From the NCBI GenBank assembly GCA_027319565.1, contig DAHVNA010000003.1, positions 1 to 64,000 on the forward strand: a DNA stretch of 64,000 nt, given 5' to 3'. Positions 16,896 to 62,441 of this stretch are shown here, piece by piece. The stretch is from Elusimicrobiota bacterium. GTDB lineage: Bacteria > Elusimicrobiota > Elusimicrobia > UBA1565 > UBA9628. The notes under the pieces were generated by a model. That model was not told where the DNA came from and did no database searches. It saw only the letters and a program-made list of their open reading frames with translations. The number at the start of each line of letters is the position of its first letter. Within the stretch, counting starts at the first letter, position 1. The position numbers and the translations under genes are program-made.

Positions 16896-16948
16896 CCGGT
16901 CAAAACCGAGCCGCCGCCCGCGAACTTTTTTTGATAAAATGCGTATTA

Positions 16949-18009: not shown

Positions 18010-18116
18010 TCCCGCCCCAATAGCCCCGCTTCCGCCTAGGTCTTTTTTCGGAGCTTTTCTAGGCCCTTTGGTTCATGTATTTTTATTTCGACCATGTTAA
18101 ACTTTCTCTAGGTCTC

Positions 18117-18998: not shown

Positions 18999-19069
18999 AG
19001 ACAAGGGCATCCGCCTTTCCGCCACCATCGCGCCAATCTTTTATTCATTTCTGATTATTCATCTTCCTT

Positions 19070-19086
19070 TTGGCACTTTTGTTGCA
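19070..19086 (+). promoter_or_regulatory. sigma54 (-24/-12) promoter P1
   Basis: TTGGCACTTTTGTTGCA matches TGGCAC-N5-TTGC; ~40 nt upstream of the cytochrome c ATG. Confidence 0.85.
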
Positions 19087-19128
19087 AGTAGTTTTTTGCC
19101 GGGAATAAAGACTTAAGGAGATGCTCAA

Positions 19129-19659
19129 ATGAATACTAGAAAGACTTTCTGGATTAGCTTCGGAATCTCCATGATCGGGCTTATGCTTTTCCTATCCACC
19201 CCTCAAGCCGCCGATAAAATGGAAGAAGCCTTCCGAAACAGCGTATTTCCCAACGACTTTGGCCCCACCACTATCAATGTCTCTCATTATCCCAAGAAAA
19301 TGCAGGCCTACTACAAGGTATTTCTGAAAAAATGTTCAAAATGCCACAGCGTCGCGCGCCCCATCAATGCGCAATTCTTGGAGCTCACCCCTCAGGGCGA
19401 AAAAATCGCTAAAAAAGACGATCCCATCATCTTTAAGGACACCGATGTCTGGAAAGTCAGCCCGGTCATCTGGGACAAATACGTCCATAAAATGATGGCG
19501 AAACATGGAGCGGTCATCACCAAGAAAGAAGGGCACGAAATTTATGAGTTTCTGGTCTACGACTCCAAGGTGCGCAAAACCGGAGCCAAGACAAAGGAAT
19601 GGGAAAAGCAACGCGAGCGCCTGCTCAAAAATTTAGAAGAAATAACCGAAGGACTATAA
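19129..19659 (+). CDS. Exported monoheme cytochrome c
   Basis: Signal peptide, CSKCH, later W..YVHKMM (candidate Met ligand); AAGGAG SD. Confidence 0.8.
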   Translation: MNTRKTFWISFGISMIGLMLFLSTPQAADKMEEAFRNSVFPNDFGPTTINVSHYPKKMQAYYKVFLKKCSKCHSVARPINAQFLELTPQGEKIAKKDDPIIFKDTDVWKVSPVIWDKYVHKMMAKHGAVITKKEGHEIYEFLVYDSKVRKTGAKTKEWEKQRERLLKNLEEITEGL

Positions 19660-19674
19660 AAACAAGGAGGAGTT

Positions 19675-21093: not shown

Positions 21094-21111
21094 ATCTCGG
21101 CGCTCTCAGTT

Positions 21112-21145
21112 GAGAGGCGGGCGGAAACGCCCGCCTCTCTTTTTT
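21112..21145 (+). terminator. Intrinsic terminator after the porin
   Basis: GAGAGGCGGGCG-GAAA-CGCCCGCCTCTC perfect 12 bp stem plus TTTTTT. Confidence 0.92.
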
Positions 21146-21164
21146 ATATACGCTCAATCCGGTA

Positions 21165-21181
21165 TTGGCTGTTTTGTTGCT
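21165..21181 (+). promoter_or_regulatory. sigma54 (-24/-12) promoter P2
   Basis: TTGGCTGTTTTGTTGCT: GG-N10-GC right after the terminator and before the AGGAGG SD of yceI. Confidence 0.72.
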
Positions 21182-21207
21182 TGTTATTAATTCAGGAGGA
21201 ATTGGTT

Positions 21208-21855
21208 ATGAAAACAAAACGACAGACATTCGCTCTAAGCTTCTGCTTATTAGCCCTCAGTTCTTTTTCTTATGCGGCTTCAATTCCGATTGAGGCCTTG
21301 CCGCAGAGTCAAGTTTGGATATCGGGAAACTCAACCCTTCATCCCTTTATCATCAAAGCCTCGACCTTTAATATCCAAATGTCTATTGCCGCTTCCGGAA
21401 ATGGAGAGGCAAAAACGGCTGTCCTTAAAGGCTTGCCGGCCCAACTCCAGCTGACCATTCCCGTCAAGGGATTACGATCCGAATTTGAAGCCATGGACGA
21501 CAATACACAAAAGGCCATGAAAGCGAAAAAATACCCCACCATCGTATTTTCGCTTACGTCTTATTCCCTCTCCAATCTCAATGGGAAAGAGTCCATCGCC
21601 GCCCTAGGAACCCTCTCAATTTCCGGAGTGTCAAAGCCGATTACCCTTCACGGAAAAATCGCAATCTCAAAATCAAAAATCACCGTCACCGGTTCTCAGC
21701 CTATTTTGATGAAAGACTACGGAATCACGCCGCCGACAATGATGTTTGATACGATTAAGGTTGACAACAAGGTCGTCGTCCACTATCATTTAATCTTGAC
21801 TCAAGCGGAAAAGGCGGACTTGGGCGCAAGTCATTCATTGGCCGCGGGTTTATAA
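21208..21855 (+). CDS. YceI-family periplasmic lipid/polyisoprenoid-binding protein
   Basis: SGNSTLH, YPTIVF, GTLSISGVSKPI, MKDYGITPP; signal peptide. Confidence 0.85.
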   Translation: MKTKRQTFALSFCLLALSSFSYAASIPIEALPQSQVWISGNSTLHPFIIKASTFNIQMSIAASGNGEAKTAVLKGLPAQLQLTIPVKGLRSEFEAMDDNTQKAMKAKKYPTIVFSLTSYSLSNLNGKESIAALGTLSISGVSKPITLHGKIAISKSKITVTGSQPILMKDYGITPPTMMFDTIKVDNKVVVHYHLILTQAEKADLGASHSLAAGL

Positions 21856-21879
21856 ACCGTCCCATGAAAGGAGAAGATC

Positions 21880-22449
21880 GTGACGCAATTCAAGCGGGCA
21901 TCCATCGTGATGGTCTCTTGTCTATTGGCAATGGCTTTTTCCGCCTCGGCCTCGGGCCGAACAACGCGCGGTCTCTTTATCCACATCCGATCTCAAAAAG
22001 GGATATACTTCGTCAAAGGCGAATTCTATGTCCAGTCCTCGGTTGAAAATTCCTGGAAAGTTCTCACCGATTATGACCATATCGCCGATTTTGTCGGAAA
22101 CGTCGACTCAAGCACAATCCTGGAACAGAACCAATCCTCTCTTCTCATACGACAGAAAATTTCCGGGAAAGTTCTATTTATCAACAAAACATTTAGCCTC
22201 AAGCTTCTGATCCACGAGCGCCCTCGGCAGCTGATTTCCTTTACTGACATCTCCCACAAAAGCTTTTCAATCTATGAAGGCTCCTGGGAATTGTCCCCGT
22301 TCAAAGGCCAATCCAAAATCATCTATCGCCTCAAGGCCAAACCCAAGGGCTGGGCTCCATTGATTCTTGGCCAGCACGCCTTTAAATCGAACGCGCGGGC
22401 GCTTCTTGATGAAATTCGCTCTGAAATTCTTAGAAGATCAGCGGAATGA
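21880..22449 (+). CDS. SRPBCC/START (polyketide cyclase/CoQ-binding-like) protein with signal peptide
   Basis: WKVLTDYDHIADFV and YEGSWEL motifs. Confidence 0.78.
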   Translation: MTQFKRASIVMVSCLLAMAFSASASGRTTRGLFIHIRSQKGIYFVKGEFYVQSSVENSWKVLTDYDHIADFVGNVDSSTILEQNQSSLLIRQKISGKVLFINKTFSLKLLIHERPRQLISFTDISHKSFSIYEGSWELSPFKGQSKIIYRLKAKPKGWAPLILGQHAFKSNARALLDEIRSEILRRSAE

Positions 22450-23171
22450 AAAACATGGAAACAAAAAAAATTGAAAGCGAAGAAGAGCTGTCCAAAAGAA
22501 AAGAGGAATGGCGGCGCATGATCGCCCACGATCTGCGCGCTCCTCTCTCCAACATATCGGCGGTCCTTCAAGTCATTCGGGAGGTGTCCGGGACAAGGCC
22601 ATTAAGCGCGAAAGAAATCGAACTCATTGATATCAGCCTCCGTTCCGGAAAACGCATGATGGAACTTCTGGACCTATTTTTAGATATCGCCAAATTAGAC
22701 GAAGGGGTGATGCCGGTATCCAAAAAAGAAATACTTCTCTCCCCCCTGGTTCAGAGCGTCATCGAGGATGAAGTTTCCCTCGCCCGAGCCAAAAACATCT
22801 CTATTGAGGTATCCATCGGCGAAAGAGAAACCGTTTTCGCCGATGAAAATCTTCTGGAGAGAACCCTTCAGAATCTTCTTAATAACGCCCTTAAATTTAC
22901 CCCGCGCGGAGGGAAAATTTCCATCTCCTTGACGGATAAAGACAAGATATCCGTTCGAGACAACGGAATCGGGATTTCCCAGGACGGAATGAAAACCCTC
23001 TTTGACCGTTTCCACCAGGCCGAAGCCCGTCGGGAAGGCTTGATTCAAGGAAACGGCCTGGGACTCACCTTCTGCCGACAAGCCGTGCGCGCCATGGGAG
23101 GAGAAATCTACGTCCATTCGGAACTGGGCAAAGGAAGCGAGTTTACCATCAGCCTGCCGCCTCACCCTTAG
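22446..23171 (+). CDS. Histidine kinase core (HisKA + HATPase) with no input domain
   Basis: AHDLRAPL, NLLNNALKFT, DNGIGI, GNGLGL, GKGSEF. Confidence 0.9.
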   Translation: MKNMETKKIESEEELSKRKEEWRRMIAHDLRAPLSNISAVLQVIREVSGTRPLSAKEIELIDISLRSGKRMMELLDLFLDIAKLDEGVMPVSKKEILLSPLVQSVIEDEVSLARAKNISIEVSIGERETVFADENLLERTLQNLLNNALKFTPRGGKISISLTDKDKISVRDNGIGISQDGMKTLFDRFHQAEARREGLIQGNGLGLTFCRQAVRAMGGEIYVHSELGKGSEFTISLPPHP

Positions 23172-23610
23172 AGTCTTCCATCTCCACAAAAGCCCTTAAA
23201 ATGTCCATGGTCGACACAATGCCGACCAAGCGCTTATCCCTGGTAATGGGCAAGCGGTGAATTCGTCTGGCGAGCATCTGCCGAGCCAGATCCCCGACCG
23301 GAGTTTCCTCATCGGCCGAGAGAACCGCCGGGGTCATTAAATCAAAAACCGTCACCTCGTCTTTGACCCTTGAAACTGAATCAAAAAGGGGCATCACGTC
23401 GCGGTAAAAATCCAAGGCATCGTCTTTTTCAGACCGCGCTTGTTTTCTCACGATATCGGTCTGAGAGACGACCCCCATCAACGCCCCATGACTATCGACG
23501 ACGGGAACGCCCGTAATCTTGTGTTTGGTGAGAAGTTCCGACAACTCCTTGGCGGTCACGAGCGGCGAAACGGTGACGACATTTCTTCGCATAATGTCTT
23601 TTGCCTTCAT
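23149..23610 (-). CDS. Tandem CBS domain protein
   Basis: AKDIM, ITGVPVVD..G.LMGVVSQTDI, IHRLPI....LVGIVSTMDI. Confidence 0.9.
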   Translation of the reverse strand: MKAKDIMRRNVVTVSPLVTAKELSELLTKHKITGVPVVDSHGALMGVVSQTDIVRKQARSEKDDALDFYRDVMPLFDSVSRVKDEVTVFDLMTPAVLSADEETPVGDLARQMLARRIHRLPITRDKRLVGIVSTMDILRAFVEMEDSKGEAAG

Positions 23611-23623
23611 AAATTTCCCTTGT

Positions 23624-24133
23624 TCAAGAAATACTTTGCCCTTTGTCCCATTTTTTCTTAATAATCTTCTCGACCCCCTGGGTATTAGACTCTATGCGTC
23701 TCCCCATGGAGCGCCCCAAAGAACGGCTCATCGTCCGAGCGTAATGAGGCCAAAGGCGCTCTTCTTCCACTTTAAAGTGAGCGCGCAAAAGCGCGACCAA
23801 TTCCTTGGACCATTTTCGCAACCGGCTCAGCGGGCCTGGCCCCGGCTGAAGCGGGAGATTGCTAATTTGTTCGATTAGTTGCTTTAAATGAAGATGCTGC
23901 TCTTCAATCGCGTCTAAAATAACTGCGGCTCCGGGCTCTTTCAAATACGACTCTTTCTCAATGAGAGAATTTTCCATCTCTTCATGAATTTCCAAAATTG
24001 GAAGAAGAATAGCCAAGACTCCCCAAATCCGTCCCCATGCGCCGATTCCTTCAATCCGCACGGCGACTTCCAAGCGCTCAATAATTCTTTCCAAGGCGCG
24101 ATGCTCGGCTTTGACTTCCGTAAAAAAGTTCAT
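23624..24133 (-). CDS. Hemerythrin-like (HHE) domain protein
   Basis: EH, HEEME, QH and HFKVEE metal-ligand pattern. Confidence 0.75.
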   Translation of the reverse strand: MNFFTEVKAEHRALERIIERLEVAVRIEGIGAWGRIWGVLAILLPILEIHEEMENSLIEKESYLKEPGAAVILDAIEEQHLHLKQLIEQISNLPLQPGPGPLSRLRKWSKELVALLRAHFKVEEERLWPHYARTMSRSLGRSMGRRIESNTQGVEKIIKKKWDKGQSIS

Positions 24134-24149
24134 CTTAGCTCCAACGGCC

Positions 24150-25058
24150 TCAACTCTTTGACTTCTCCGAAGAAATTTCCGGAACCGCTAAAACCGAAGA
24201 TTCACTATAGCGAATCACCCTTTCCGCCGTCGTTCCCAAAATCATATCTTCCAAAAACCCGCGAGAGCGCGCGGCTAAAACGACGAGATCCGACTCCAGG
24301 GAAGCCTTGAGTATTTCATTGATCGGCTTTCCCCAAGCGACTTGGGCTTCGATTTTCTGCGGCCTTTGAGAGTCTGGCAGGCGTTTGAGGCCACTCAAGA
24401 CCGTTTTTTTGATATGGGATAAGTCTCCGGAAAATTCCACGCTCGGAGTGGCCGCCACATGAAAAATATTCAATCCCGCTCCCATGGATTTCGCGCAAGC
24501 AGCGGCGAACTCAAGCCCGAAAACGGAACGACTGTTTAAGTCATAAGGGGCTAGTATCCGCTCGGGCTTTTTAACGGGCTTTTTCGCGATTAAAACCGGA
24601 ACCCGGCTTTTTCGGACCACCGCCTCCGCCACCGAGGAATGAAACGCCCTGGCCAAACCCAAGCGCGACTGGGTGCCAAGAACGATTAAATCAAAGCGAT
24701 TTGAATGAGCCCAACGGACAATTTCCTCGATTGGATCTCCGGGAAGAGAAACAATTCTCTCTTTAATCCCTAAATTTTTCCGCAAGCGCTCAACGGTTTC
24801 TTCGGAGGTTTTCGCCGTCAGCTGCGGATCTGCGTATCCAAACTCGCTATTGCCAGCCCAAAGCCAGGGTTGGACATAAACCCCTTCTATCTTTGCCTTC
24901 CAAATCTTCGAGAAAATCAAGCCCTCTTCCCAAGCGATAGCGGAAGCCTGAGAGGGGTCCAAAGCGACCAAAATGCGCTTAGGCGGACAATGCTGCTTGA
25001 TCTGGGCGTTTTCCGCCGATTTTTCCGCAATCCCTGGGTCCGTTAAATGGTCTTTCAT
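24150..25058 (-). CDS. Tandem universal stress protein (two Usp domains)
   Basis: RILVALD, DLIVLGT, SVAEAVVR, ILGTTAERVIR; AGGAG SD before ATG 25058. Confidence 0.9.
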   Translation of the reverse strand: MKDHLTDPGIAEKSAENAQIKQHCPPKRILVALDPSQASAIAWEEGLIFSKIWKAKIEGVYVQPWLWAGNSEFGYADPQLTAKTSEETVERLRKNLGIKERIVSLPGDPIEEIVRWAHSNRFDLIVLGTQSRLGLARAFHSSVAEAVVRKSRVPVLIAKKPVKKPERILAPYDLNSRSVFGLEFAAACAKSMGAGLNIFHVAATPSVEFSGDLSHIKKTVLSGLKRLPDSQRPQKIEAQVAWGKPINEILKASLESDLVVLAARSRGFLEDMILGTTAERVIRYSESSVLAVPEISSEKSKS

Positions 25059-25117
25059 AAATTGTCTCCTTCTTAGGTGCGGCTTAAGCTCTCGTGTCCT
25101 GTCCCTAACGACTTCTC

Positions 25118-25134
25118 TGCAACACAAATTCCAA
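25118..25134 (-). promoter_or_regulatory. sigma54 (-24/-12) promoter P3 for usp-hemerythrin-CBS
   Basis: Minus strand TTGGAATTTGTGTTGCA: GG-N10-GC. Confidence 0.7.
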
Positions 25135-25155
25135 TTCAGCGCAGGAAAATGGAGC

Positions 25156-25172
25156 TAGGACAAAGTGTTGCG
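25156..25172 (+). promoter_or_regulatory. Candidate sigma54 promoter P4, divergent from P3
   Basis: TAGGACAAAGTGTTGCG: GG-N10-GC; predicted start site falls almost on ATG 25185. Confidence 0.5.
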
Positions 25173-25184
25173 AGAACAATAGGC

Positions 25185-26141
25185 ATGGAAACAACGCCTT
25201 GGTCGATTGTTCTTGCCGCCGGAGAAGGAAGTCGGTTAAGCTCGGCCATCAAAAACTGGTTCGGGCGGGAATGTCCGAAACAGTTTTGCGCTTTAGGGGG
25301 CTCTCAAACGATGGTTGAAAAGACCATCAGCCGCGCGCTTGACGTCAGTTCTCTCAATCAAGTCCTGACTATCGTGGGCAAAAGCCAATTGTCATTTATC
25401 CCCCCCCACGCCAAACTTGGGCGCGTGATTAAACAACCCCGAAATTTGGGAACTGGGATCGGAATCCTTTACTCCCTTGCCCATATCCTGCCCCGAAACC
25501 CGGAAGCCATCGTATCTATTCTTCCCTCCGATCATTTCGTCGCGCCCAAGCGCGTTTTTTCTAAATTTCTGCGTTTGGCGGTTCGCTTCGTGAAAGATAA
25601 CCCGCAAAATCCCCTCTTATTGGCCGCGCAGGCGACAAGCCCCGAAACCGATTATGGATGGATAGAGACGGGAAATTCCATCAATGATTCTTCTATTCTT
25701 TCCGTGTCCCGGTTTAGAGAAAAGCCCCCCATGGAAGAAGCCTCTAGGCTGTGGAACCGCGGAGCTCTATGGAACACCATGATTACCGTCTCTAAAGCCA
25801 AAACGCTGTGGGAATTGGCTCGGGCGGTGAAACCAGATTTAATTCGCCATTTTGAGGAAATATTTTCTTCCCTCGATTCGGGAATTTCCGAAGAAGAAGC
25901 GGAAAATTTTTACCAGCGCATCGCGCCGCTGGATTTTTCAAAAGACATACTTGAAGTCAACGCCCATCAAATCAACGTCCTTCCGATGAGAGGGGTTGTC
26001 TGGAGCGATTGGGGAAGGCCAGAGCGGATACTGGAAATCATTGGCCAGTTTGGACTCCCTTCTCCAATGTCGACAGGGGGCTCATATGAACTTAATCGAA
26101 CATTTAGAGAAAGACCACGCCGAGTTAAGAGCTTTGCTTAA
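25185..26141 (+). CDS. Mannose-1-phosphate guanylyltransferase-like nucleotidyltransferase (no isomerase domain)
   Basis: IVLAAGEGSRL, PKQF, PSDH, YGWIE, FREKP, WSDWG. Confidence 0.82.
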   Translation: METTPWSIVLAAGEGSRLSSAIKNWFGRECPKQFCALGGSQTMVEKTISRALDVSSLNQVLTIVGKSQLSFIPPHAKLGRVIKQPRNLGTGIGILYSLAHILPRNPEAIVSILPSDHFVAPKRVFSKFLRLAVRFVKDNPQNPLLLAAQATSPETDYGWIETGNSINDSSILSVSRFREKPPMEEASRLWNRGALWNTMITVSKAKTLWELARAVKPDLIRHFEEIFSSLDSGISEEEAENFYQRIAPLDFSKDILEVNAHQINVLPMRGVVWSDWGRPERILEIIGQFGLPSPMSTGGSYELNRTFRERPRRVKSFA

Positions 26142-26613
26142 GGCGGCGGAAAATATCCTGGGGGAACCGCAAGGGGTAGGACTCGATGATCGCCTCTCAA
26201 CGGACAGAAAGTTATTGGTTGAAGCCTTGAAAAAATTTCTTATCGCGTTTGAAAGACACGAAGAAGCGGAAAGCCGCGTCATTGAACGCCTCTTACGGCT
26301 TGAAAAAATCTTGTCGGCCCGGCCTTTAGACGCATCTTCCAAAATCAGCGCGCCCTTGCGCAAATCTATTTCGGAAGGCCACCGTTCGCTTAAATCCATC
26401 ACCCACCTTCTAGGCGCCATCGCCTCATCCGACGATTCGGATCAAATCTACTCCATCCGACATGTTGTCTCTTCTCTTAAAGACGAACTAAGCCGCCATT
26501 TGGATTACGAAGAACATGAAATATTTCCTAAGCTGAAAGACGCTTTAAGCGCGGAAACTCTCGACAAAATGACGCGCTGGGCAAAAAATGCGACAAAATC
26601 TCAAAAAGTTTAA
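26086..26613 (+). CDS. Hemerythrin-like (HHE) domain protein
   Basis: DH, HEEAE, GH, HLDYEEHEIFP pattern. Confidence 0.78.
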   Translation: MNLIEHLEKDHAELRALLKAAENILGEPQGVGLDDRLSTDRKLLVEALKKFLIAFERHEEAESRVIERLLRLEKILSARPLDASSKISAPLRKSISEGHRSLKSITHLLGAIASSDDSDQIYSIRHVVSSLKDELSRHLDYEEHEIFPKLKDALSAETLDKMTRWAKNATKSQKV

Positions 26614-31500: not shown

Positions 31501-32576
31501 ATTTCACCTTAATTGGATTTTTAAAAAAAGAATTCGCTCAAGGCTTAAGAGACCGCCGGATGAGAGTTCTTATCTTCATTTTGCCAAGCTTGCAACTCAT
31601 TGTCTTCGGTCTGGCCATTCGCACCGAGATGAGAAATATTCGCCTTGCCGTCTTTGGCAAACCCGATCCTCTCTTGCGGGAAATAACGACTCGCGCGGAG
31701 GCCTCGGGATGGTTTATCCCCGCCAAGGTTCGCGGAAACAACCCTTATCAGTGGGCCAAATCCGGGGAGGCGGAAGCGATTTTAGTCGCCCCCGAAAACG
31801 GGCTTGGCAGAGACGCCAAGCGCGGAACGGCGAACCTTCAAATTCTCATCGACGCCTCCGACAGCGTCAGGGCGCGCATCATCAATGCCTATCTGTCTTC
31901 GGTTATCCGGCAAGCCGACAAAGACCCCGCGCCTCAGTTTAGCTTCTCAATCCGAACTCTTTATAATCCGGAATTAAAAACCGCCCACTTTATGGTTCCT
32001 TCTATTTCCGGGCTGATTCTCAGCATCCTGACCATTATCTTGACCAGCATGTCTCTCGCCCGCGAAAAAGAAATTGGAACCATGGAAACCATTCTATCGG
32101 CTCCTATTGAAGGATGGGAAATACTTTTAGGCAAGACCATCCCTTTTGTCGTCATGGGAATCATCGTCTTTACGCTGGTCATTTCCGCCGGGATACTGGT
32201 CTTTGGCGTGCCCGAGCGCGGCCCGATATGGATGCTGGGACTCGCAGGCCTTGTCTTTGTCATCACCAGCGTGACCATCGGGCTTTTTATTTCGACAATC
32301 ACCCAAAATCAGCAACAGGCGATGATGGCAAGTTTTATCTTTCTTTTTCCGGCCATGCAATTATCCGGCATCGCATTTCCGGTCGACAATTTGCCGCCTC
32401 TAATCGGCTGGGTCAGCTATTTCGATCCGCTGAAATATTTCGTGACCTTGATGCGAAACATCATGCTCAAGGGCGGAAACTCCGTGGTATTTTGGGAAAA
32501 CTTGGCGGCGATAGCCTTGATCGGAACATTGGTCGCCATTTTCGCCGTTGAGCGCTTCCACGACACCCTCAACTAA
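31497..32576 (+). CDS. ABC-2 permease (YbhR-like)
   Basis: KEFAQGLRD, YNPEL, AREKEIGTME. Confidence 0.9.
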   Translation: MNFTLIGFLKKEFAQGLRDRRMRVLIFILPSLQLIVFGLAIRTEMRNIRLAVFGKPDPLLREITTRAEASGWFIPAKVRGNNPYQWAKSGEAEAILVAPENGLGRDAKRGTANLQILIDASDSVRARIINAYLSSVIRQADKDPAPQFSFSIRTLYNPELKTAHFMVPSISGLILSILTIILTSMSLAREKEIGTMETILSAPIEGWEILLGKTIPFVVMGIIVFTLVISAGILVFGVPERGPIWMLGLAGLVFVITSVTIGLFISTITQNQQQAMMASFIFLFPAMQLSGIAFPVDNLPPLIGWVSYFDPLKYFVTLMRNIMLKGGNSVVFWENLAAIALIGTLVAIFAVERFHDTLN

Positions 32577-33664
32577 ACAGTCTTTGTAGACTTTAACTTC
32601 TCGATTTGATGGCGCACGGAATTGACGGTTCGCCGGGAAACGGAAATACCGCGTTCCATTTTTAATTTTGAGGCAATTTCAGCGTCGGTCATGGCCGGGA
32701 AATCCCTTATCCAAATTTCAACGAGCTCGCGCAAAACCCGGCGCCTTCCAGGCAGGAGAGAAATCAGCGGAACCTCTTTCTCCCAGGGAAGTCGCACCGA
32801 ACGATGAGAAAGCGACCGACTAATGGTCGAGGGTGATAAATCTAAACGCCGCGCCAAGCCTCTGAGACTTATCGGGCGCAGATTTTCGACCCGGCGAGAG
32901 GACAAATACTCTATTTGAATTTTCGATAAGGATTCAAAAACCCGATACAGGGCGCTTTGCCTTAAATTCAGCGCTTCGATTCGCTTAATTAATGAGGGAA
33001 GCCGCGCCTTTTCCGAAGGAGACAAAGCTGTCGTTTTCCAGCCGTCAATGAGCTCATAACGAATGTGGTAGAGACCTCTCGCCCAATAAGGGGCGTAAAA
33101 CTCAAAACGAACTTCCCCCTCCAAAACTTTTAAATGCGCGACACAGGCCGCTGGGCGGTCTGGGGCCTTGGATGGAGCCGATGTTGGAACTTCAAACTCG
33201 GAACGAATCTCGACATCCAGCAGAAAATCATGGATCGCAAGAACTTCTTCTTTTGAAAAGCCCACCCGTTTTGATATTTCCTCAAGAGTGATTCCCTGAC
33301 CCCTTAAAAAATATTTCTCGAAATTTTCGCGGCCCATTTTCCGGATCGCCGCCACCGCCAAGTCTTGTTCCACCGCCAATTTTTCGACAGGGACTCGTTC
33401 TCCCATTCCTGCGGTGGTCCTCTCGTCAATTTCATAAAAAGAGGAGTGCAGTTCTCCGGAGGGCCACTTTTGCCTTTGAAACGCGGGCAAAATCTTTCCA
33501 TCTCCGAAATAGAGCTTGCGAAAAAGATCGTCTTTCTCTATTTTCGCCACTTCAGAGGCGAAATCCTTTTCCGGCATCTCAATTAAATCCGCCATCCGCA
33601 TGCGCCCCATAATAGAAAGGCGCTGCTGGGTCTCTAAAGTAAGTCCTTGCTCTATTTTCGCCAT
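32573..33664 (-). CDS. rpoN: Atypical short sigma54 (RpoN-like) factor
   Basis: Region-I-like N-terminus, HTH LRPISLRGLARRLDLSPSTISR, C-terminal TDAEI...GISVSRRTVNSVR (RpoN-box variant); next to an NtrBC-type pair. Confidence 0.8.
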   Translation of the reverse strand: MAKIEQGLTLETQQRLSIMGRMRMADLIEMPEKDFASEVAKIEKDDLFRKLYFGDGKILPAFQRQKWPSGELHSSFYEIDERTTAGMGERVPVEKLAVEQDLAVAAIRKMGRENFEKYFLRGQGITLEEISKRVGFSKEEVLAIHDFLLDVEIRSEFEVPTSAPSKAPDRPAACVAHLKVLEGEVRFEFYAPYWARGLYHIRYELIDGWKTTALSPSEKARLPSLIKRIEALNLRQSALYRVFESLSKIQIEYLSSRRVENLRPISLRGLARRLDLSPSTISRSLSHRSVRLPWEKEVPLISLLPGRRRVLRELVEIWIRDFPAMTDAEIASKLKMERGISVSRRTVNSVRHQIEKLKSTKTV

Positions 33665-33729
33665 AGGGATATCAATTAAAAGTTTAGCAGATGTTTTTAA
33701 CGTTTACAGTGTTTATAATTTGCTAAAAG

Positions 33730-35187
33730 ATGAGAAAGACTATTTCAATGAAAGCCCCCTCTTTGTTTAAAGATTGCGCCGATGAGCTTATCGAATTTCT
33801 AGATCACGCTCCCGATTTTGTCATGCTTAGAAATCCGGATGGGACCATTCTCATGGCCAACGAAACTCTCTGTGAAAGACTCGGAGTCCCGCGGGAAAAA
33901 CTCATTGGCCGGTCTATTTATGATTTCTATATAGCCCCCAAGCAAAAACCCATTAGCCAAAAATATACGGAAACGCTCTTGCGCCAAGGGACGAATCAGA
34001 TTACGCTTCTCATGCGCGACAAAAACGGCTCTCCGGTCGAAGTCGAAGTCCGGGGTTGCCTGGTAGTTCACAAAGGGAAAAAAGTTCTTTTTGGCATCGG
34101 ACGAGAAATTGGGCGTTCTGAAAGAGATCAGAGATTGGCGGAGATATTGAGAACCGGATTTAGGGCTTCGCATGATATCATGTTCTACACCGGCCCCAAC
34201 GGAATGATTTTAGACGTCAACGACGCCTTTACCCATTATTATGGCTACACCCGAGAAGAGGCAATAGGCAGAACTCCCGGCTTTCTGCGCTCTCAGCATT
34301 CCAGCGATGAATTCTACCGGTATATGTGGGAAAAGATATTGGCTCCCGCGCACGGATTTTGGAGAGGAGAAATCATCAACCGGACCAAGGATGGACGAGA
34401 AATCCCGCTTATCCTAACCATTTCAGCCGTGCGGGACGGCTCCGACAAAATAATTGGCTTTATTTCCAGCGCCACCGATATCCACAAGCACAGGGAACTG
34501 GAAGAGAAGATTGCCCAAACCGAAGCCTTGGCCGATCTGGGAGAAATGGCGGCCGCCGTCGCGCATGAAATTAGAAACCCCCTCAGCTCGATTTCAATGG
34601 CTTCAAAACGACTCTTGCAGCGCGATTTAAAATTATCCGACAAGGAACCCATCGTCAAAATCCTCGAGAGCGAAAGCCAACGCCTCAATAAGATTCTCAA
34701 CGAACTCCTCTTATTCGCGCGGCCGCGAACGCTCAAAAGGAAATCCTCCGATCTGAACTCCCTGATAAAAACGACCGTTGATCTTATAACCCAAAATCAA
34801 AATCTGTCCTCTAATATCAAATTGGCGCTTTCTCTCGACCCGAACCTCTATCCATTCTTGTTTGACTCCGACCAGATTCTACAGGTTTTATGGAATATGA
34901 TTTTAAACGCCATCCAATCGATGGAAGGCACAGGAACCCTGACCATCCGTTCCGGCCACTCCGAAAACTTCGCCTATTTCGCGATCAGCGATACCGGCCG
35001 GGGCATTTCAGAAGAAGAAAAAGCGAAAATCTTTAAGCCCTTTCACTCCACCAAAAGCCAAGGAGTGGGATTGGGGCTCCCCACCGCGAAAAGAATCGTA
35101 GTCGCCCATGGAGGAAGAATTGAGGTCGACACAAGAATGGGGCAAGGGACCGTATTTACCGTCTGGCTTCCCTACTTGGAGAGTTAA
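33730..35187 (+). CDS. Cytoplasmic PAS-PAS sensor histidine kinase (NtrB-like)
   Basis: Two PAS domains, AHEIRNPL, NAIQSM, DTGRGI, GVGLGL; no TM segment. Confidence 0.92.
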   Translation: MRKTISMKAPSLFKDCADELIEFLDHAPDFVMLRNPDGTILMANETLCERLGVPREKLIGRSIYDFYIAPKQKPISQKYTETLLRQGTNQITLLMRDKNGSPVEVEVRGCLVVHKGKKVLFGIGREIGRSERDQRLAEILRTGFRASHDIMFYTGPNGMILDVNDAFTHYYGYTREEAIGRTPGFLRSQHSSDEFYRYMWEKILAPAHGFWRGEIINRTKDGREIPLILTISAVRDGSDKIIGFISSATDIHKHRELEEKIAQTEALADLGEMAAAVAHEIRNPLSSISMASKRLLQRDLKLSDKEPIVKILESESQRLNKILNELLLFARPRTLKRKSSDLNSLIKTTVDLITQNQNLSSNIKLALSLDPNLYPFLFDSDQILQVLWNMILNAIQSMEGTGTLTIRSGHSENFAYFAISDTGRGISEEEKAKIFKPFHSTKSQGVGLGLPTAKRIVVAHGGRIEVDTRMGQGTVFTVWLPYLES

Positions 35188-35188
35188 A

Positions 35189-36394
35189 TTGAGAAAACCC
35201 GCTATTCTCTTGGTTGAAGACGATATTTCTCTTAATACGCTCACCACGCTTGAGCTAAGAAACCGCGGCTACGAAGTGGAAACGGCTAAATCGGGCCAAG
35301 AGGGATGCGAAAAAATAAGCCAAAACCCCGACATCGTCATCACGGATCTTAAGCTCGGCGACATGGATGGGATGGATGTCCTGAGCCGGGTTAAGAAATA
35401 TGATCCCAGGATAGAAGTCATCGTCGTCACGGGACACGGTTCCATTGACAGCGCGGTCAAGGCTATCAAGGCCGGCGCTTTTGATTATCTCACGAAACCC
35501 GTCGACTCCGAAGAATTGGAACTGACCATCAAAAAAACCCTAGAACATCAAAAATTAATCGCCGAAGTGGAGAATCTCCGCTCTGAAATTCGAGACAAAT
35601 ATAGCTTTAGCGGAATCGTCTACTCTAGCCCCAAGATTAAAAACATACTCGAAATGGTCAACAAAGTCGCCAAAACCGAGGCCACTGTTTTAATTCTAGG
35701 CGAATCAGGAACCGGCAAGGAGTTAATCGCCCATGCAATTCACGAGCAAAGCCCCCGACGCCACGGCTCTTTTGTAGCCATCAATTGCGGAGCCTTGCCC
35801 GAAGGGCTGCTTGAAAGCGAGCTTTTCGGCCACGTCAAGGGCTCTTTTACGGGAGCCGATAGAAACAAAAGGGGGCTTTTTGAAGAGGCCTGTGAAGGCA
35901 CCTTGTTTTTAGATGAGATTAGCGAGACAACGCCCGCTCTTCAAGTCAAACTCCTGCGGGCGCTGCAAGAAGGAGAAATCCGGCGCGTTGGAGACAATCA
36001 TCCGATCAAGGTTTCCGGCCGACTCATCGCGGCCTCAAACAAGGATTTGGAACAACTGGTGGAAAGCGGGAAATTTAGAGACGATCTTTATTATCGCCTT
36101 AAGGTTTTTCCGATTGAAATTCCGCCTCTCAGAGAGCGCCCCGAGGATATTCTGCCTCTGGCCGAACACTTCTTAAGAAAAGCGCAAAAGAAGATATCGG
36201 GAAGCGCCAAACGCTTTTCTCCGGAAGCGGCCGCAGCTCTCAAAGCCTATTCTTGGCCCGGGAACGTCCGCGAGCTTGAGCATACCGTTGAGCGAATATT
36301 AATTCTCGCCTCCCAAGCCGAGATAAAACTGGAAGATGTTCCTCCCGAGATTCGCGCCTTACGAAAAAAAGCTTCGCTAAAACAGAAAAATTGA
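35189..36394 (+). CDS. sigma54-dependent response regulator (REC + AAA+), no C-terminal HTH
   Basis: ILLVEDD, ITDL, GESGTGKE, ESELFGH, GSFTGA, WPGNVREL; protein ends soon after the AAA+ domain. Confidence 0.92.
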   Translation: MRKPAILLVEDDISLNTLTTLELRNRGYEVETAKSGQEGCEKISQNPDIVITDLKLGDMDGMDVLSRVKKYDPRIEVIVVTGHGSIDSAVKAIKAGAFDYLTKPVDSEELELTIKKTLEHQKLIAEVENLRSEIRDKYSFSGIVYSSPKIKNILEMVNKVAKTEATVLILGESGTGKELIAHAIHEQSPRRHGSFVAINCGALPEGLLESELFGHVKGSFTGADRNKRGLFEEACEGTLFLDEISETTPALQVKLLRALQEGEIRRVGDNHPIKVSGRLIAASNKDLEQLVESGKFRDDLYYRLKVFPIEIPPLRERPEDILPLAEHFLRKAQKKISGSAKRFSPEAAAALKAYSWPGNVRELEHTVERILILASQAEIKLEDVPPEIRALRKKASLKQKN

Positions 36395-36547
36395 GACGAG
36401 AATCAAGGCAAGGCCAATGAACAGCTTCTCGGGTTCCCCTTCATTTTTTCCCAGGCGAATATAAAAGGCTCCAAGTAAACTCAAAATCAGGCCGATTAAG
36501 GCTTTAAAAGCGCTCCAGGCGGTAAAATGGAGGTTTAAGCCGGGCAT
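36377..36547 (-). CDS. Small 56-aa two-TM membrane protein (not in ORF track)
   Basis: MPGLNLHFTAWSAFKALIGLILSLLGAFYIRLGKNEGEPEKLFIGLALILVSIFLF; ATG overlaps the fabF-like stop (TGATG). Confidence 0.7.
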   Translation of the reverse strand: MPGLNLHFTAWSAFKALIGLILSLLGAFYIRLGKNEGEPEKLFIGLALILVSIFLF

Positions 36548-37854
36548 CAAGATTCCCAGCGCTTAAACAAGAGACATCCATTGACGTCTCCAAAGCCGAA
36601 GGAAGCCTTAATCACATACTCCAAGTTCCGGTCCATTTTTTGATGAGGAATACTCCCGGATATTTTCTGAATCTCGGGGTGAACCTTCTCGGAATTAATC
36701 GAGGGGTGAACATATGAATTGACTATTTGGTCGACCACCGCCACCGATTCCAAGGCCCCCGCCGCGCCCAAGGAATGTCCGATCATGGATTTGGTCGATT
36801 GAATCAAGGGAAATTTCGCGGGATCAAGTTCCAGGGCCTTTAGCCAACTTCCCACCTCGCGCGGATCGGCGGCAGTCGAGGTCAAGTGCCCGTTGATGAG
36901 AGAAATTTTAGACGGAGAAACTCCTGAATCCTCAATGACTTTTCGGATACAGCGAACAACCCCCTCGGGATTTGGAAAAGTCATCGTGCCCCCGTCTCTT
37001 TGGCCGCCGGAATTGCAATAGGCGGCGACGAGTTCGCAAAGTATTTTCGCCCCGCGCTTTTGCGCCGATTCCAGGCTTTCGAGTCTCAAAACTCCGGCGC
37101 CGCCGGAAGGGACAAAGCCGCAGGCCCCCGCTCCCATCGGTTGGGAGCCTTTTTCCGGAGCCTCGTTATATTTGGAACAAAGAACGTCTCTCATCGCGTC
37201 AAAGCCGGACCAACTGCCGTAATGCGTGCCCTCGGCCCCCCCGGCATACATGGATTCGGCGTAGCCCAACTGAATATTTTTCCAGGCATCGAAAATCGCT
37301 TCCGTCCCGGTGTTGCAGGCGGAACTATTAGAGCTCGTTTGTCCGCCGGCGCCTAAAAATTTCCCGACCGCGACTGAAATGGAACTAGACATCACCTGCG
37401 GGACGATATCGGTTCCCATGGGAGCGGTCCCACGCCCCGGCTCTTGGTTTTTGGCGTCAAAGACGACCGGGGCCAAGGAATCAAGAATCGTGTCCATGCC
37501 GCCAATGCCGGAGCCGATAATAACCCCCGTGTCCCACAAAACCGGGGTATCTCGTTTCCCGTTGACCCAATCTATTTCCATGCCGCTCATCCGCGCGCAT
37601 TCAATAGAAGCCATCACGGCATAGACCATCGCCTCGTTTAATTTATTGAGCTCGCCCTCGGGAATCAATTTTAAAACCTCTTCTTCCTCCACAGGCGGAA
37701 CGCCTCCGATTTGGCAGAGATAATTCATTTCTTTAAGATCTTCTCTAAAAGAAATCCCCGATTTTCCCGCCTTTAAAGCCTCTCGAAAATTTTGAACTCC
37801 AACGCCATTGGGCGCGACCGCGCCCACCCCGGTAACGACAACTCGTTTTCTCAT
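36547..37854 (-). CDS. Beta-ketoacyl-ACP synthase (FabF/FabB-like)
   Basis: RVVVTGVG; Cys-His-His in SSAC, NGHLT, GHSLG; SFGFG. Confidence 0.9.
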   Translation of the reverse strand: MRKRVVVTGVGAVAPNGVGVQNFREALKAGKSGISFREDLKEMNYLCQIGGVPPVEEEEVLKLIPEGELNKLNEAMVYAVMASIECARMSGMEIDWVNGKRDTPVLWDTGVIIGSGIGGMDTILDSLAPVVFDAKNQEPGRGTAPMGTDIVPQVMSSSISVAVGKFLGAGGQTSSNSSACNTGTEAIFDAWKNIQLGYAESMYAGGAEGTHYGSWSGFDAMRDVLCSKYNEAPEKGSQPMGAGACGFVPSGGAGVLRLESLESAQKRGAKILCELVAAYCNSGGQRDGGTMTFPNPEGVVRCIRKVIEDSGVSPSKISLINGHLTSTAADPREVGSWLKALELDPAKFPLIQSTKSMIGHSLGAAGALESVAVVDQIVNSYVHPSINSEKVHPEIQKISGSIPHQKMDRNLEYVIKASFGFGDVNGCLLFKRWES

Positions 37855-38267
37855 TTCTTCACCTCGAAAAGTTCCTGATGAGATATTTTCAGCGCCGCGC
37901 TAAAAACCCCTTCCCCGTCTTTTTCCCCCCCGTAAAAAAAGGACTCCGCGCGAAAAGAAAAAAATCCATTTTCCGAAGGCGCTTCTTGAGCGCTAACCTT
38001 GACGGCCACAGCGTCTCCGGGGCGCACTTTTTTTTTAAACAAAGCGTTCTCTACCGAACGGAAAAGCCCCGTTTCTCCAGATTCCGATTCCCGAAAAGAC
38101 CACAAGCGAGCGCCTGCCTGACAGGCCATCTCGACCAATTTAATTCCCGGCACCACCGGATTTCCCGGAAAATGTCCGGCGCAATCTTCTTCTTTCCAAG
38201 CGTAAAGCGCTAAAAGATGCGAATCGGTTTTTTCCAAAATCCGATCGATGAATTTCCACTCCATCAC
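37851..38267 (-). CDS. FabZ/FabA-like hydroxyacyl-ACP dehydratase
   Basis: FIDRI, GHFPGNPVVPG...E. Confidence 0.8.
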   Translation of the reverse strand: MMEWKFIDRILEKTDSHLLALYAWKEEDCAGHFPGNPVVPGIKLVEMACQAGARLWSFRESESGETGLFRSVENALFKKKVRPGDAVAVKVSAQEAPSENGFFSFRAESFFYGGEKDGEGVFSAALKISHQELFEVKK

Positions 38268-38992
38268 AAGCCCATTCCTCCGTCGACGCTTAAGATCGCC
38301 CCGTTAAGATAATCGTTCTCAATTAAATGCGCGACCGCTAGAGCGACCGCTTCCGCGCTGCCAAATTGCCCCAAGGCGATTTCTTGGCGAATCAGGTTCC
38401 GCGTCGCTTCCGCGATTGTCTCGGTCATGGACGTTTCAATAAAACCAGGGCTGACCGCATTGACCCTTAAGCCCTTGGGCCCCCATTCAAAAGCCGCCTG
38501 TTTGGTCAAGGCCTCAAGAGCGGCTTTGGACGCCCGGTAAACCGCGCTCCCCGTCAAAGCTTTTTTCGCCAAAATGGAGCTGACGTTAACGATCATTCCG
38601 GAACCGGATTTAATCATCTCCTTGGCGAAATCCCGCATCAGAAGAAGCGGCGTTTTAAAATTGACTCCCAAAATCAAGTCAATGGATTCTTCCTGGATAT
38701 TGAGAGTCGGCTCGTGGGGCTTGTCGATTCCAGCGTTATTGACGAGAATATAGGGATTTCCCTCTTTGAGAGCGGCCTCCAGTAAAGCGCCCCGGCCCCG
38801 CGCCGTCGAAAGATCGGCTTGAACCAAAAAAGAATTTTCTATTTCCGACTGCAAGGCCTTTGCGGCCTCGGCATTTCCTTTATAATGGATTCCAATTCGC
38901 AGTTCTCCCTCGCTTTTTTCGCTTAAAACCTTGGCGATGGCCCTCCCAATTCCGCCGGACGCTCCAGTAATGATCGCGACATCTTCAGACAT
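38264..38992 (-). CDS. FabG-like ketoacyl reductase (SDR)
   Basis: TGASGGIG, NNAG, YRASK, PGFIET, VDGG. Confidence 0.85.
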   Translation of the reverse strand: MSEDVAIITGASGGIGRAIAKVLSEKSEGELRIGIHYKGNAEAAKALQSEIENSFLVQADLSTARGRGALLEAALKEGNPYILVNNAGIDKPHEPTLNIQEESIDLILGVNFKTPLLLMRDFAKEMIKSGSGMIVNVSSILAKKALTGSAVYRASKAALEALTKQAAFEWGPKGLRVNAVSPGFIETSMTETIAEATRNLIRQEIALGQFGSAEAVALAVAHLIENDYLNGAILSVDGGMGL

Positions 38993-39999
38993 TAGAGAAC
39001 CTCCATATATCCGCCGCCCCAGGCAAGCCCGGCCCCCAAAACGGCGTAAACGATCTGATCTCCTTTCTTAAACCGGCTCCAATTTTGCGCGAGAACCGAG
39101 GGGCACCCTGCGGCGGCGATATTTCCTTGCTCCCGCACGTTTCTCAAATGGCGTTTTTCCGGAAGCTGCAAATGTTCAAGAATGGAATTTTGCATCACGA
39201 AATTAGCTTGGTGGGCGATGGTATAACAATCTTCGGCATAAAGCCCTTTTCGTTGGGCTATTTCCTCGAACATCTCGCAGGTTTTCCGTATTGAAAACTC
39301 GCGAACCGCCGCTCCGTTTTGCCTAAAATGTCCGACGGAATCAATCACGATTTCATCGGCATCTTCCGATCTGGTTTCAAAAATCACAGGTTCGACCTTC
39401 AGTCGCCCCGGATGCTTGGACGAGACCACTTCCGCCGCCGCTCCGTCTCCCCAAATATATCCATCGATACTTTTGGCTGAATAGTCCGTGCGCGTCGTGT
39501 AAGCCGAGGACTGAACGCAAAGAATAAATTCCGGAAGACTTTCCTTTTCCATATCCGCAAGGGTTTTCATATGGAGAGAAAAACTCGAGCACGCGGAGTT
39601 GATATCGCAGTGCGGCCCCGGCCGAGCGCCCAGTTCCCGCGCGATTTGATTGGCCAGGCAGGGAATCATTTCAAAGGGCGTGTCGCAGTTAGCGATCACC
39701 CAACCAATTTGACTCGGAGAAACACGGGCGCGCTCTAAAGCTTGTCTTGCCGCCAAAACCGCAAGGCTTAACGGCGTCTCGCCGCGAGAGCGGGCGTGCA
39801 AAATCGCTTGATCAGGGTTTTTATTTTTAGTTTCCCGGAGATAATCAAGGCTTAAAACCGAATAACGGCTGTTGATGCCAAGCCGAGAATCCACCCAGTC
39901 CTGGCCTTTTTCAAGCCCCACTTCCCGATGCAGAAAATCATTGCTTATTTCCGTTTTCGGGAGAGAACTGCCGATGCCGTGAATGTAAAACCCGCCCAT
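38992..39999 (-). CDS. FabH-like ketoacyl-ACP synthase III
   Basis: Cys-His-Asn in SACSSF, HQAN, GNI; WGDGAAA, GAGLAWG. Confidence 0.87.
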   Translation of the reverse strand: MGGFYIHGIGSSLPKTEISNDFLHREVGLEKGQDWVDSRLGINSRYSVLSLDYLRETKNKNPDQAILHARSRGETPLSLAVLAARQALERARVSPSQIGWVIANCDTPFEMIPCLANQIARELGARPGPHCDINSACSSFSLHMKTLADMEKESLPEFILCVQSSAYTTRTDYSAKSIDGYIWGDGAAAEVVSSKHPGRLKVEPVIFETRSEDADEIVIDSVGHFRQNGAAVREFSIRKTCEMFEEIAQRKGLYAEDCYTIAHQANFVMQNSILEHLQLPEKRHLRNVREQGNIAAAGCPSVLAQNWSRFKKGDQIVYAVLGAGLAWGGGYMEVL

Positions 40000-40980
40000 C
40001 TATAATCCCGAGATCGCTTCTCCGCCGTCAACGCGCAGAACCTCGCCATTGACCCAGGAAAAACCGGGGAGACAAACCTGATAAATTGTCTCGGCCACGT
40101 CCTCGGGAGTAGTCAGGCGGTGATAAGGGTTTCTCATGCGCGCCTGGGCCTTCATTAAATCGAAATTGGGGATCGCGTTTCCAGCCGGGGTATCGGTAAT
40201 TCCGGCTTGAATCACTAATGAGCGCGCGCCGTAAGGCGCCAATTCCACCGCTAAAGCCCGGCAAGAAGCCTCCAGAGAACACTTCGCCGCTGAAACCGCA
40301 GCATATCCCTTCCAAGCGATTTCATTCCCTTCCGATGTCATCGCGATGAGACGCGCCTCTTTGCTCAAAAGCCCTTCCTTGGACAACTCCCGCCCCCAAA
40401 GCAGATAGTCATACCCCATCATCCAAATCGTACGGCTCAAATCTTCTTCGCTTAATAAATCCTCGCGATAGGGAATGCGGCTATCGGCCAAGGTATAGAG
40501 GGCATCACATTTTTTTTCATGAAAAGCCTCGTTAATCGCCGCGCGCAAAACTTCGGCGGAAGCGGAAACGCCGCGTTTTGAGAGAGACTCCGACAATCCC
40601 TTGATAGCCGCGCCTTTAAAATCGGGGGTTTTATCTTCCAAGATGAGTTTGCACGCTCCTGCCGCCACCGAATGCATAAAAAGATGAACCCCTTGAGGCC
40701 CCGCTTCCTTAGAGAGGCTTTCAAAAACAAGCCCGCGCTCGTCTTCATCGAATAAATTGACGTTGTGGGTGACCAAGCGAACGCCCAAAGAGCGAATTTC
40801 ATCAAAATGAGGCTTTATCGAAGTTTCAACAACGCCTTCTTTGTCTTTATGCGCGATAAAAATATTGAGCCCGCTCTGGGCCAAGCGCTTGGCCGCGGCC
40901 AAGCCAAAACCGGAAGAGCCGCCTAAAATGACAGCCCAAAGATTTTTCCCGACAAACGGCTTTTCTTCAAAATGAGCCAT
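40000..40980 (-). CDS. Enoyl-ACP reductase (FabL/FabI-like SDR)
   Basis: LGGSSGFG, YAAVSAAK (Yx6K), RLTTPEDVA, VDGG. Confidence 0.8.
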   Translation of the reverse strand: MAHFEEKPFVGKNLWAVILGGSSGFGLAAAKRLAQSGLNIFIAHKDKEGVVETSIKPHFDEIRSLGVRLVTHNVNLFDEDERGLVFESLSKEAGPQGVHLFMHSVAAGACKLILEDKTPDFKGAAIKGLSESLSKRGVSASAEVLRAAINEAFHEKKCDALYTLADSRIPYREDLLSEEDLSRTIWMMGYDYLLWGRELSKEGLLSKEARLIAMTSEGNEIAWKGYAAVSAAKCSLEASCRALAVELAPYGARSLVIQAGITDTPAGNAIPNFDLMKAQARMRNPYHRLTTPEDVAETIYQVCLPGFSWVNGEVLRVDGGEAISGL

Positions 40981-48453: not shown

Positions 48454-48492
48454 TTTTTCTCCATTTAAAACCTTATGGGATCGTTACGAATC

Positions 48493-49466: not shown

Positions 49467-49473
49467 ATGATAA

Positions 49474-49502
49474 ATATTAACATATGATATTAATTCTGTC
49501 AA
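49474..49502 (-). promoter_or_regulatory. sigma70 promoter of perR-dps-ccp, probably leaderless, overlapped by a repeat
   Basis: TTGACA-N17-TAATAT (with TGn extension), 7 nt before ATG; TATCATATG occurs twice. Confidence 0.75.
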
Positions 49503-62299: not shown

Positions 62300-62441
62300 G
62301 TTTGAATCCTCCTTTTCCCCATGATACAAAAAATAGCCTGTTTTAAGGGATGGGCAAAATTTAGTTTAATTGACGGATGGAAAACAGGCCGGAAAGGAGC
62401 GGCCTTTCTTGGTTGATGGCATCCTTATTAGCCCCTCTCCT

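Follow-up and report, generated by a model that had tools for sequence, protein, structure and literature searches.

What does a sigma54 become when it has lost much of its core-binding region and the residues flanking its base-reading arginines, and which promoters would it then read? The question is raised by a 363-amino acid (aa) protein encoded in a 64,000-nucleotide (nt) stretch of Elusimicrobiota DNA (contig DAHVNA010000003.1, positions 1 to 64,000; hereafter the window), for which a reading of the letters alone had proposed a miniaturised sigma54 with a rewritten RpoN box. The answer that we consider probable is an intact and conserved compact sigma54, likely a dedicated factor working with the adjacent PAS kinase and bacterial enhancer-binding protein (bEBP). 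It is predicted to act at -24/-12 promoters written (t)GGc-N5-YRTTGC, which precede a local and probably low-oxygen gene set. As judged from sequence, it would be ordinary in kind and unusual in build: a sigma54 variant typical of its phylum, whose promoter code is predicted to have shifted. The gene and its first two parts are as follows, in window positions:

32573..33664, minus strand: compact sigma54-family gene, 363 aa (Pfam; profile; AlphaFold model and fold matches; ratio of nonsynonymous to synonymous substitution rates, dN/dS)
33506..33664, minus strand: Region-I-like N-terminus, about aa 1-53, with a Gln/Leu-rich tail and two helices (structure alignment, model residue 17 placed on 8F1I residue 15)
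33170..33505, minus strand: middle part, aa 54-165, which replaces Region II and the core-binding domain (CBD) (model, profile and fold searches)

The open reading frame (ORF) starts with ATG and has no internal stop codon. Its product matches Sigma54_DBD (PF04552) with an E-value of 3.3e-12 and 46.9 bits (cut-off 22.8), the only such match in the 2.03-Mb, 92%-complete genome; no match to Sigma54_CBD (PF04963) or Sigma54_AID (PF00309) was found at E<=1, so that of the three sigma54 families of Pfam only the DNA-binding domain (DBD) is recovered. TIGR02395 gives 51.5 bits against a cut-off of 277, and the protein stays far below all NCBIfam RpoN cut-offs. A profile built from 35 members of the short family, all of which carry Sigma54_DBD (35/35), aligns to 7 canonical RpoN with 99.7% probability, pairing residues 124-363 of the window protein with 228-477 of E. 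coli, and finds solved sigma54 chains (best 1.7e-28), unlike the single window sequence, with which a PDB search retrieved no sigma54. The AlphaFold model (pLDDT 85) has Foldseek matches at E<=0.001 exclusively among sigma54 chains (24 counted), and VIA places model residues 17-362 on residues 15-472 of the 8F1I chain (Z 12.7, 221 residues, root mean square deviation 7.1). By its predicted fold the protein is a sigma54, comprising a Region-I-like N-terminus and the C-terminal half. The Region-I-like N-terminus, whose helices are predicted and conserved, is supported by the modelled structure without Pfam support. The original prediction of a 363-aa miniaturised sigma54 with recognisable N-terminus, helix-turn-helix (HTH) and C-terminal domain is borne out, with structure alignment supporting the first and Pfam the last.

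The low family scores could also be those of a decaying rpoN remnant. This reading is refuted by the selection test and keeps practically no probability: dN/dS of the sigma gene against its four closest relatives is 0.08-0.12 (three further, more distant pairs were saturated), which indicates purifying selection and not pseudogenisation. A first search returned at least 100 homologues, most of them 340-380 aa long and annotated as 'hypothetical', those with a named source all from Elusimicrobiota; the box reads SRRTVNAVR in 87 of the first 100 listed. A profile search collected 282 clusters at E<=1e-30. Among 301 Elusimicrobiota genomes, 96 have a DBD match, 91 a bEBP and one a CBD match, with similar tallies of DBD and bEBP by family, and many genomes hold two to four DBD matches, often adjoining a bEBP. 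The best 30 DBD loci were read: 29 have the short form and one the canonical form. The short build is the normal sigma54 of this phylum sample and not a one-off. The sole canonical CBD-bearing RpoN in the 301 genomes (461 aa; L074, G111:C163) is possibly a transfer or a binning error. Two large families of mostly small genomes are nearly devoid of DBD matches (1/88 and 0/89), in agreement with the reported absence of sigma54 from Elusimicrobium minutum (PMC3162934). One Atlas cluster of the short family is mostly Chloroflexota, and the range of the family may therefore be wider than Elusimicrobiota. Its origin is not drawn from the family tree because this was computed by a quick method with canonical rows trimmed to their last 235 aa. 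Literature searches, whose coverage leaves out most subscription journals and supplements, found no paper describing the short family. A recent survey, in which Elusimicrobia are not mentioned, recognised sigma54 from three Pfam domains (PMC12316311); members of this family would escape such a rule.

The core-binding region, said at the outset to be shortened, is so: about 112 aa (54-165) separate Region I from the strands that follow the CBD, versus about 195 aa (residues 57-250) for Region II and CBD of E. coli (PMC5095919), and there is no PF04963 match. In the AlphaFold model aa 94-154 form a helical, HTH-like bundle. It is probably what remains of the C-terminal part of the CBD, and the final two CBD helices are aligned within the whole-profile match to canonical RpoN. 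Taken alone, the middle part matches the canonical RpoN profile weakly (11.8% probability) and has no Foldseek match at E<=0.001 (the weak rows are mainly sigma70 region 4), while VIA gives nothing clear (top Z 5.4; 2K9L at rank 25 with Z 3.5, level with generic HTH domains); a fold match this weak shows neither likeness nor novelty. It is thus presumed that the surviving half of the CBD is the C-terminal one. A complex prediction combining sigma aa 16-305 with the N-terminal part of beta' and the beta flap encoded by the same genome scored 0.11, under the mark, and is evidence neither way. The middle part has a dN/dS of 0.07-0.11, a constraint equal to that on the rest of the protein.

A protein lacking a canonical CBD might no longer load on RNA polymerase and act instead as a free DNA-binding repressor or adaptor at -24/-12 sites. 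The CBD match is absent from this protein and from 300 of the 301 phylum genomes, and the middle part is a weak profile match, as such a regulator would have it. We nonetheless hold this to be quite improbable, for selection constrains the middle part no less than the remainder of the protein, a Region-I-like N-terminus and the extra-long helix are retained, the adjacent bEBP belongs to a group with an intact GSFTGA/GAFTGA loop, and the genome has no other sigma54 for that bEBP to act on. The predicted sites described below, moreover, lie 14-90 nt before start codons in the sense direction, 31 of 115 at the spacing that puts the start site on ATG.

If the protein is a compact sigma54 that still loads, its promoter contacts would involve two segments of the C-terminal half:

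32816..32836, minus strand: -12-binding HTH recognition stretch SPSTISR, where E. coli has HESTISR (S379 and R383 conserved, H377 and E378 substituted; alignment)
32612..32638, minus strand: RpoN box SRRTVNSVR (R455, R456, T457, V458 and R462 kept; A459N, K460S, Y461V; alignment)

LSPSTISR occupies residues 276-283 and SRRTVNSVR residues 343-351; neither the full canonical box ARRTVAKYR nor the HES motif of the HTH occurs in the 363-aa protein. In the alignment of the family profile with canonical RpoN, R344 and R345 correspond to E. coli R455 and R456. These are named as the base readers of the box, R456 setting the GG and being reported as 100% conserved (PMC12096077). Over 233 family rows the box keeps R455 in 202, R456 in 227 and R462 in 218, with K460 in 22 and Y461 in 150, and the HTH keeps S379 in 208 and R383 in 232, with H377 in 41 and E378 in 16. 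The changes are HES to SPS/APS and AKY to NSV/NAV. As aligned, the box is rewritten around, not at, its base-reading arginines: the notion of a near-invariant box rewritten as SRRTVNSVR applies to positions 459-461 and fails for R455 and R456, which are unchanged. Positions 459-461 are not neutral, since in an Ala-Cys scan (first assay column) changes at 459 and 460 lower activity and changes at 461 and 462 abolish it (PMC2715252). The HTH change may be as important as that in the box. Some family members replace the residue in the R456 column, by His (P0140, P0149, P0212), Ser (P0154) or Gln (L183:6300-7406). A register error or decay is possible in all of these members. The quick tree groups the three His rows as a single clade; His at 456 is also a change found in engineered orthogonal sigma54.

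The promoters were approached through 69 homologous loci around the sigma gene, used for linkage and motif discovery (kin among them are not independent). An unseeded Gibbs search 5' of the sigma gene found a -24/-12 site in 51 of 60 usable loci. Unseeded expectation maximisation (EM) on 458 non-coding upstream regions of other genes (sigma and kinase excluded) returned 115 sites, 114 of them unique, with a log-likelihood of 572 versus 111 for shuffles; the EM was limited to non-coding regions, an earlier motif search on accessory genes having locked onto coding sequence. In the 114 sites the -24 side reads T at -26 in 65, G at -25 in 108, G at -24 in 112 and C at -23 in 86, followed by C (59) or A (37) at -22 and by G (61) or C/T (27) at -21. 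The -12 side has a pyrimidine at -17 in 110, G at -16 in 103 and T at -15 in 107 before TGC, forming a YGTTGC element. A hand count of 42 intergenic sense sites of E. coli (Table 1 of PMC4591121) gives T at -26 in 39, A at -22 in 34, C/T at -21 in 38, and a pyrimidine at -17 in 27, G at -16 in 6 and T at -15 in 29. A check independent of any motif model agrees: GG-N9-TGC has 195 hits, of which 126 carry G at -16, versus 65, 89 and 83 hits when the spacing is changed, and strict TGG-N8-TTGC sites have G at -16 in 45/59 and a pyrimidine at -17 in 57/59. As the sigma self-promoter more often has A at -16 (38 unique sites: A 24, G 14), a purine at this position is the safer rule. The predicted promoter form is therefore written (t)GGc-N5-YRTTGC, with the GG core kept, -22/-21 loosened and an extended -12 element gained.

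Retention of GG is expected because R455 and R456 are kept, and specificity would have moved rather than simply relaxed because the loss at -22/-21 is matched by a gain at -17 to -15; the HTH change may be the cause of the extended -12 element. The altered or relaxed -24 recognition suggested originally is in this sense half right: the bases after GG do vary (A at -22 in 37/114 and C/T at -21 in 27/114, versus 34 and 38 of 42 in E. coli), while the GG core is not rewritten and the loss is paired with the -12 extension. The same differences might reflect the GC content of the hosts and the shared ancestry of a few promoters, in a working sigma54 whose specificity is ordinary or simply relaxed. 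In favour of this, the genomes that supplied the sites are related, one promoter of the window begins with TGGCAC, R455, R456, S379 and R383 are all kept, and E. coli sites also vary at -16. We consider this unlikely given that G at -16 and a pyrimidine at -17 precede at least 10 unrelated types of gene, that all four window promoters read TGTTGC in a lineage of 50% GC, and that loci of other subfamilies of the same phylum have more canonical-looking sites, TGGCAY with A, T or C at -16.

The shift may follow the residue at 459. Of 24 strict TGG-N8-TTGC sites counted by hand, 15 lie beside sigmas lacking Asn at 459, and among these 12 have C/T at -21 and 2 have G at -16; the corresponding counts are 1 and 7 for the 9 sites beside Asn-459 sigmas. 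This co-variation is suggestive only, because the 9 Asn-side sites include the same site four times over, related loci do not count independently, paralogues may serve each other's promoters and L122 is an exception. Near the other subfamilies a plain pattern count gave 72 hits versus 44, 47 and 51; a seeded EM run over 353 of their upstream regions drifted to GC-rich noise, and no shared self-promoter was seen in those regions. In L012, L033, L035 and L071 another site lies 5' of the sigma gene, just downstream of the self-promoter. It faces the other way, toward the kinase, and reads TTCC instead of TTGC; it could be one of two promoters facing each other, or be non-productive.

Four local promoters with variable bases after GG had been noticed in the window, and all are recovered, starting at 19071 (+), 21166 (+), 25133 (-) and 25157 (+):

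19071..19085, plus strand: predicted promoter TGGCACTTTTGTTGC, 5' of a CxxCH protein and a porin-like gene (19129-21093); second-best genome matrix score, matching site in L007
21166..21180, plus strand: predicted promoter TGGCTGTTTTGTTGC, 5' of YceI, a cyclase-fold protein and a kinase (21208-23171); best genome matrix score, same-gene sites in 8 loci
25119..25133, minus strand: predicted promoter TGGAATTTGTGTTGC, 5' of universal stress protein (USP), hemerythrin and CBS genes (25058 down to 23149); matrix, kept in 3/3 aligned relatives
25157..25171, plus strand: predicted promoter AGGACAAAGTGTTGC, 14 nt 5' of the ATG at 25185; matrix score, alignment of relatives

The genes behind AGGACAAAGTGTTGC code for a nucleotidyltransferase, a hemerythrin and an OEP/HlyD/ABC exporter, in a run that ends at 32576, and the message from the 25157 promoter would be nearly leaderless. 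The predicted start falls on or beside the ATG in 31 of the 115 sites, making leaderless sigma54 messages possible there. The pattern GG[ACT]N5YGTTGC, which was derived from homologous loci including close relatives of the window, has 39 hits in the 2.03-Mb genome. Five of them fall within 18000-26200, where 0.16 are expected; four of these five sites lie 5' of genes and one inside an oppositely oriented gene. We rejected a fifth candidate promoter, 48524 (-), located before a cytochrome c peroxidase gene: it lies inside the dps coding sequence and is broken in 3/5 relatives. Between the sigma and kinase genes a different element is found:

33675..33725, no strand assigned: sigma/kinase intergenic region with two conserved blocks, an imperfect inverted repeat with a TAGCA core (upstream motif search, relatives)

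These blocks, present in the window and in L005-L008 with variable spacing, stand where other lineages have the self-promoter, and one adjoins a TATAAT.

The first genes behind the predicted sites encode USP, CBS and YceI proteins, c-type cytochromes, porin, HemA, Crp/Fnr regulators and COX3, and further P-type ATPase, phosphoketolase and ribonucleotide reductase; Pfam was applied to 19 of the 40 unlabelled targets. Hemerythrin genes are among the targets in the window. The list suggests a low-oxygen regulon, the resemblance being to those of DosR and FixK/Fnr.

Immediately beside the sigma gene lie two genes of a candidate activating system:

33730..35187, plus strand: soluble PAS-PAS histidine kinase (Pfam; PDB match of the second PAS; matched in 56/69 loci)
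35108..36394, plus strand: receiver-AAA+ bEBP with GSFTGA loop, without C-terminal HTH (Pfam; matched in 52/69 loci)

The sigma and kinase genes are divergent, back-to-back, with the bEBP gene behind the kinase and 1.4 kb from sigma; the true bEBP start is probably near 35185. Its AAA+ domain (PF00158, 235 bits) is the only strong Sigma54_activat match in the genome, two others being weak (E about 1e-9). Pfam lists no HTH family in it, and the protein ends 38 aa past PGNVREL, versus 85-96 aa in HTH-bearing relatives. Among 43 linked bEBPs (L054 and L057, with different downstream bEBPs, excluded), 42 have GSFTGA or GAFTGA and one GSFTSA; 17 lack a C-terminal HTH and 26 keep it. The second PAS of the kinase has its best PDB match in 3EWK (E 3.5e-15), the FAD redox sensor of MmoS (PMC9668731). 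By our own reading of its sequence, His, Met-Trp and Asn of the flavin pocket are apparently present, and flavin or redox sensing is likely. Other bEBPs, beside short sigmas, have Asp in the loop (GAFTDA, GSFTDA, GAYTDA: L125, L129, L136, L139, L141, L151, L154, L156, L166, L167, L170 and L189), possibly a code that matches sigma to bEBP.

With Region II and part of the CBD gone, the factor could alternatively be an activator-independent sigma of the bypass type, the two-component system acting elsewhere. Parts of Region II and CBD are described as blocking the DNA and RNA channels (PMC7057263), Region I is too diverged for the Pfam AID model, and -11 is not restricted to A/T (W in 65 of the 114 sites). 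Such a sigma is very improbable in our judgement: the Region I helices are predicted and conserved, bEBPs accompany sigma across the phylum sample, and the HTH-less bEBP has no other evident job.

On the preferred reading of a dedicated compact sigma54, the second PAS would sense redox state through a flavin and the kinase would phosphorylate the receiver of the bEBP, whose AAA+ ring would grip Region I and open the promoter complex. R344 and R345 would read GG, loss of A459, K460 and Y461 would loosen -22/-21, the changed HTH (H377S/A, E378P) would accompany an extended -17/-16 contact, and the shortened middle bundle would still dock on RNA polymerase. Since the bEBP lacks an HTH, promoter sequence alone would pick the targets, and a distinctive promoter would be useful because activation would need no enhancer.

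Several observations weigh against this reading. The CBD, described as the part chiefly responsible for core binding (PMC5095919), has no Pfam match, nor has AID, and the middle part alone is a weak match. The Gibbs search upstream of sigma found no sigma54 self-promoter in the window or in its four closest relatives, and the A-rich -16 of the self-promoters elsewhere disagrees with a strict G. Many loci come from GC-rich hosts, which could push -22/-21 to C/G, again with kin that are not independent; the sigma paralogue serving each promoter was assumed from closeness, and L122 breaks the co-variation. The pocket Arg of Aer and MmoS is apparently missing from the second PAS.

A broader scheme is a tentative and rather doubtful possibility: Elusimicrobiota sigma54 would be organised like extracytoplasmic function (ECF) sigmas, in small private cassettes of sigma, bEBP and sensor with promoter dialects of their own set by 459-461 and 377-378, orthogonal paralogues, a CBD reduced to a single sigma4-like HTH bundle, and R456 replaced in some members.

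Other features of the window were noted. Upstream of the predicted regulon, 16931-18009 encodes an ECF sigma and a zinc-finger anti-sigma. The exported protein at 19129-19659 carries a single CxxCH motif and reaches the cut-off of no Pfam family; it is matched in 18/69 loci. A fatty-acid-synthesis-like cluster (36547-40980) includes a ketoacyl synthase by Pfam, matches to which also lie near several other short sigma54 genes. Oxidative-stress genes at 47398-49502 and 61712-62329 code for a Fur/PerR-like regulator, a Dps-like ferritin, a di-haem peroxidase and a peroxiredoxin.

Sigma54 is regarded as a single conserved protein that recognises a single consensus promoter. Like canonical RpoN (E. 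coli, 477 aa; Aquifex aeolicus; 8F1I, 5UI5), the compact form has a Region-I-like N-terminus followed by extra-long helix, HTH and RpoN domain, with order and fold preserved; also shared are R455, R456, R462, S379, R383, the GG-N10-GC spacing of the predicted promoters and a bEBP partner. It differs in being about 115 aa shorter, in having no Pfam CBD or AID match and in its HES to SPS/APS and AKY to NSV/NAV changes; its predicted sites lose AC after TGGC and gain YR before TTGC, and its gene shares a cassette with a kinase and a bEBP of its own, versus lptB-rpoN-hpf-ptsN in E. coli. If our reading is true, a sigma54 can give up roughly half of its CBD, the part described as most conserved, and in nature its specificity can pass from the flank of the -24 element to a -12 box that is extended.

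The RpoN paralogues of Cereibacter (Rhodobacter) sphaeroides are full-length and have a normal box. These four, RpoN1-4, show that one genome can hold several sigma54 with cognate bEBPs and some promoter preference (PMC11999139), as may be compared with the two to four DBD matches, often beside a bEBP, in many genomes here; their reported discriminator is the -11 base, versus the predicted shift at -22/-21 and -17/-16. CtcC of Chlamydia and FlgR of Helicobacter consist of receiver and AAA+ without DNA-binding domain (PMC3162934), like the window bEBP and 17 of the 43 linked ones, but here HTH loss is patchy within one family (26/43 keep it) and the partner sigma has itself diverged. In engineered orthogonal sigma54 (R456H/Y/L), box changes can rewire -24 recognition (PMC12096077), whereas the window protein keeps R456, its sites keep GG, and the substitutions fall at 459-461 and within the HTH. 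If true, the family is a natural test set for the residues reading -22/-21 and -17/-16, useful for orthogonal sigma54 design. The target list, finally, is similar to those of the DosR and FixK/Fnr regulons (USP, CBS, hemerythrin, c-type cytochromes, HemA, Crp/Fnr, P-type ATPase, ribonucleotide reductase). Those regulons are run by sigma70-type activators, whereas here a private sigma54 would run the low-oxygen gene set, a probable oxygen-response regulon in an uncultured phylum.

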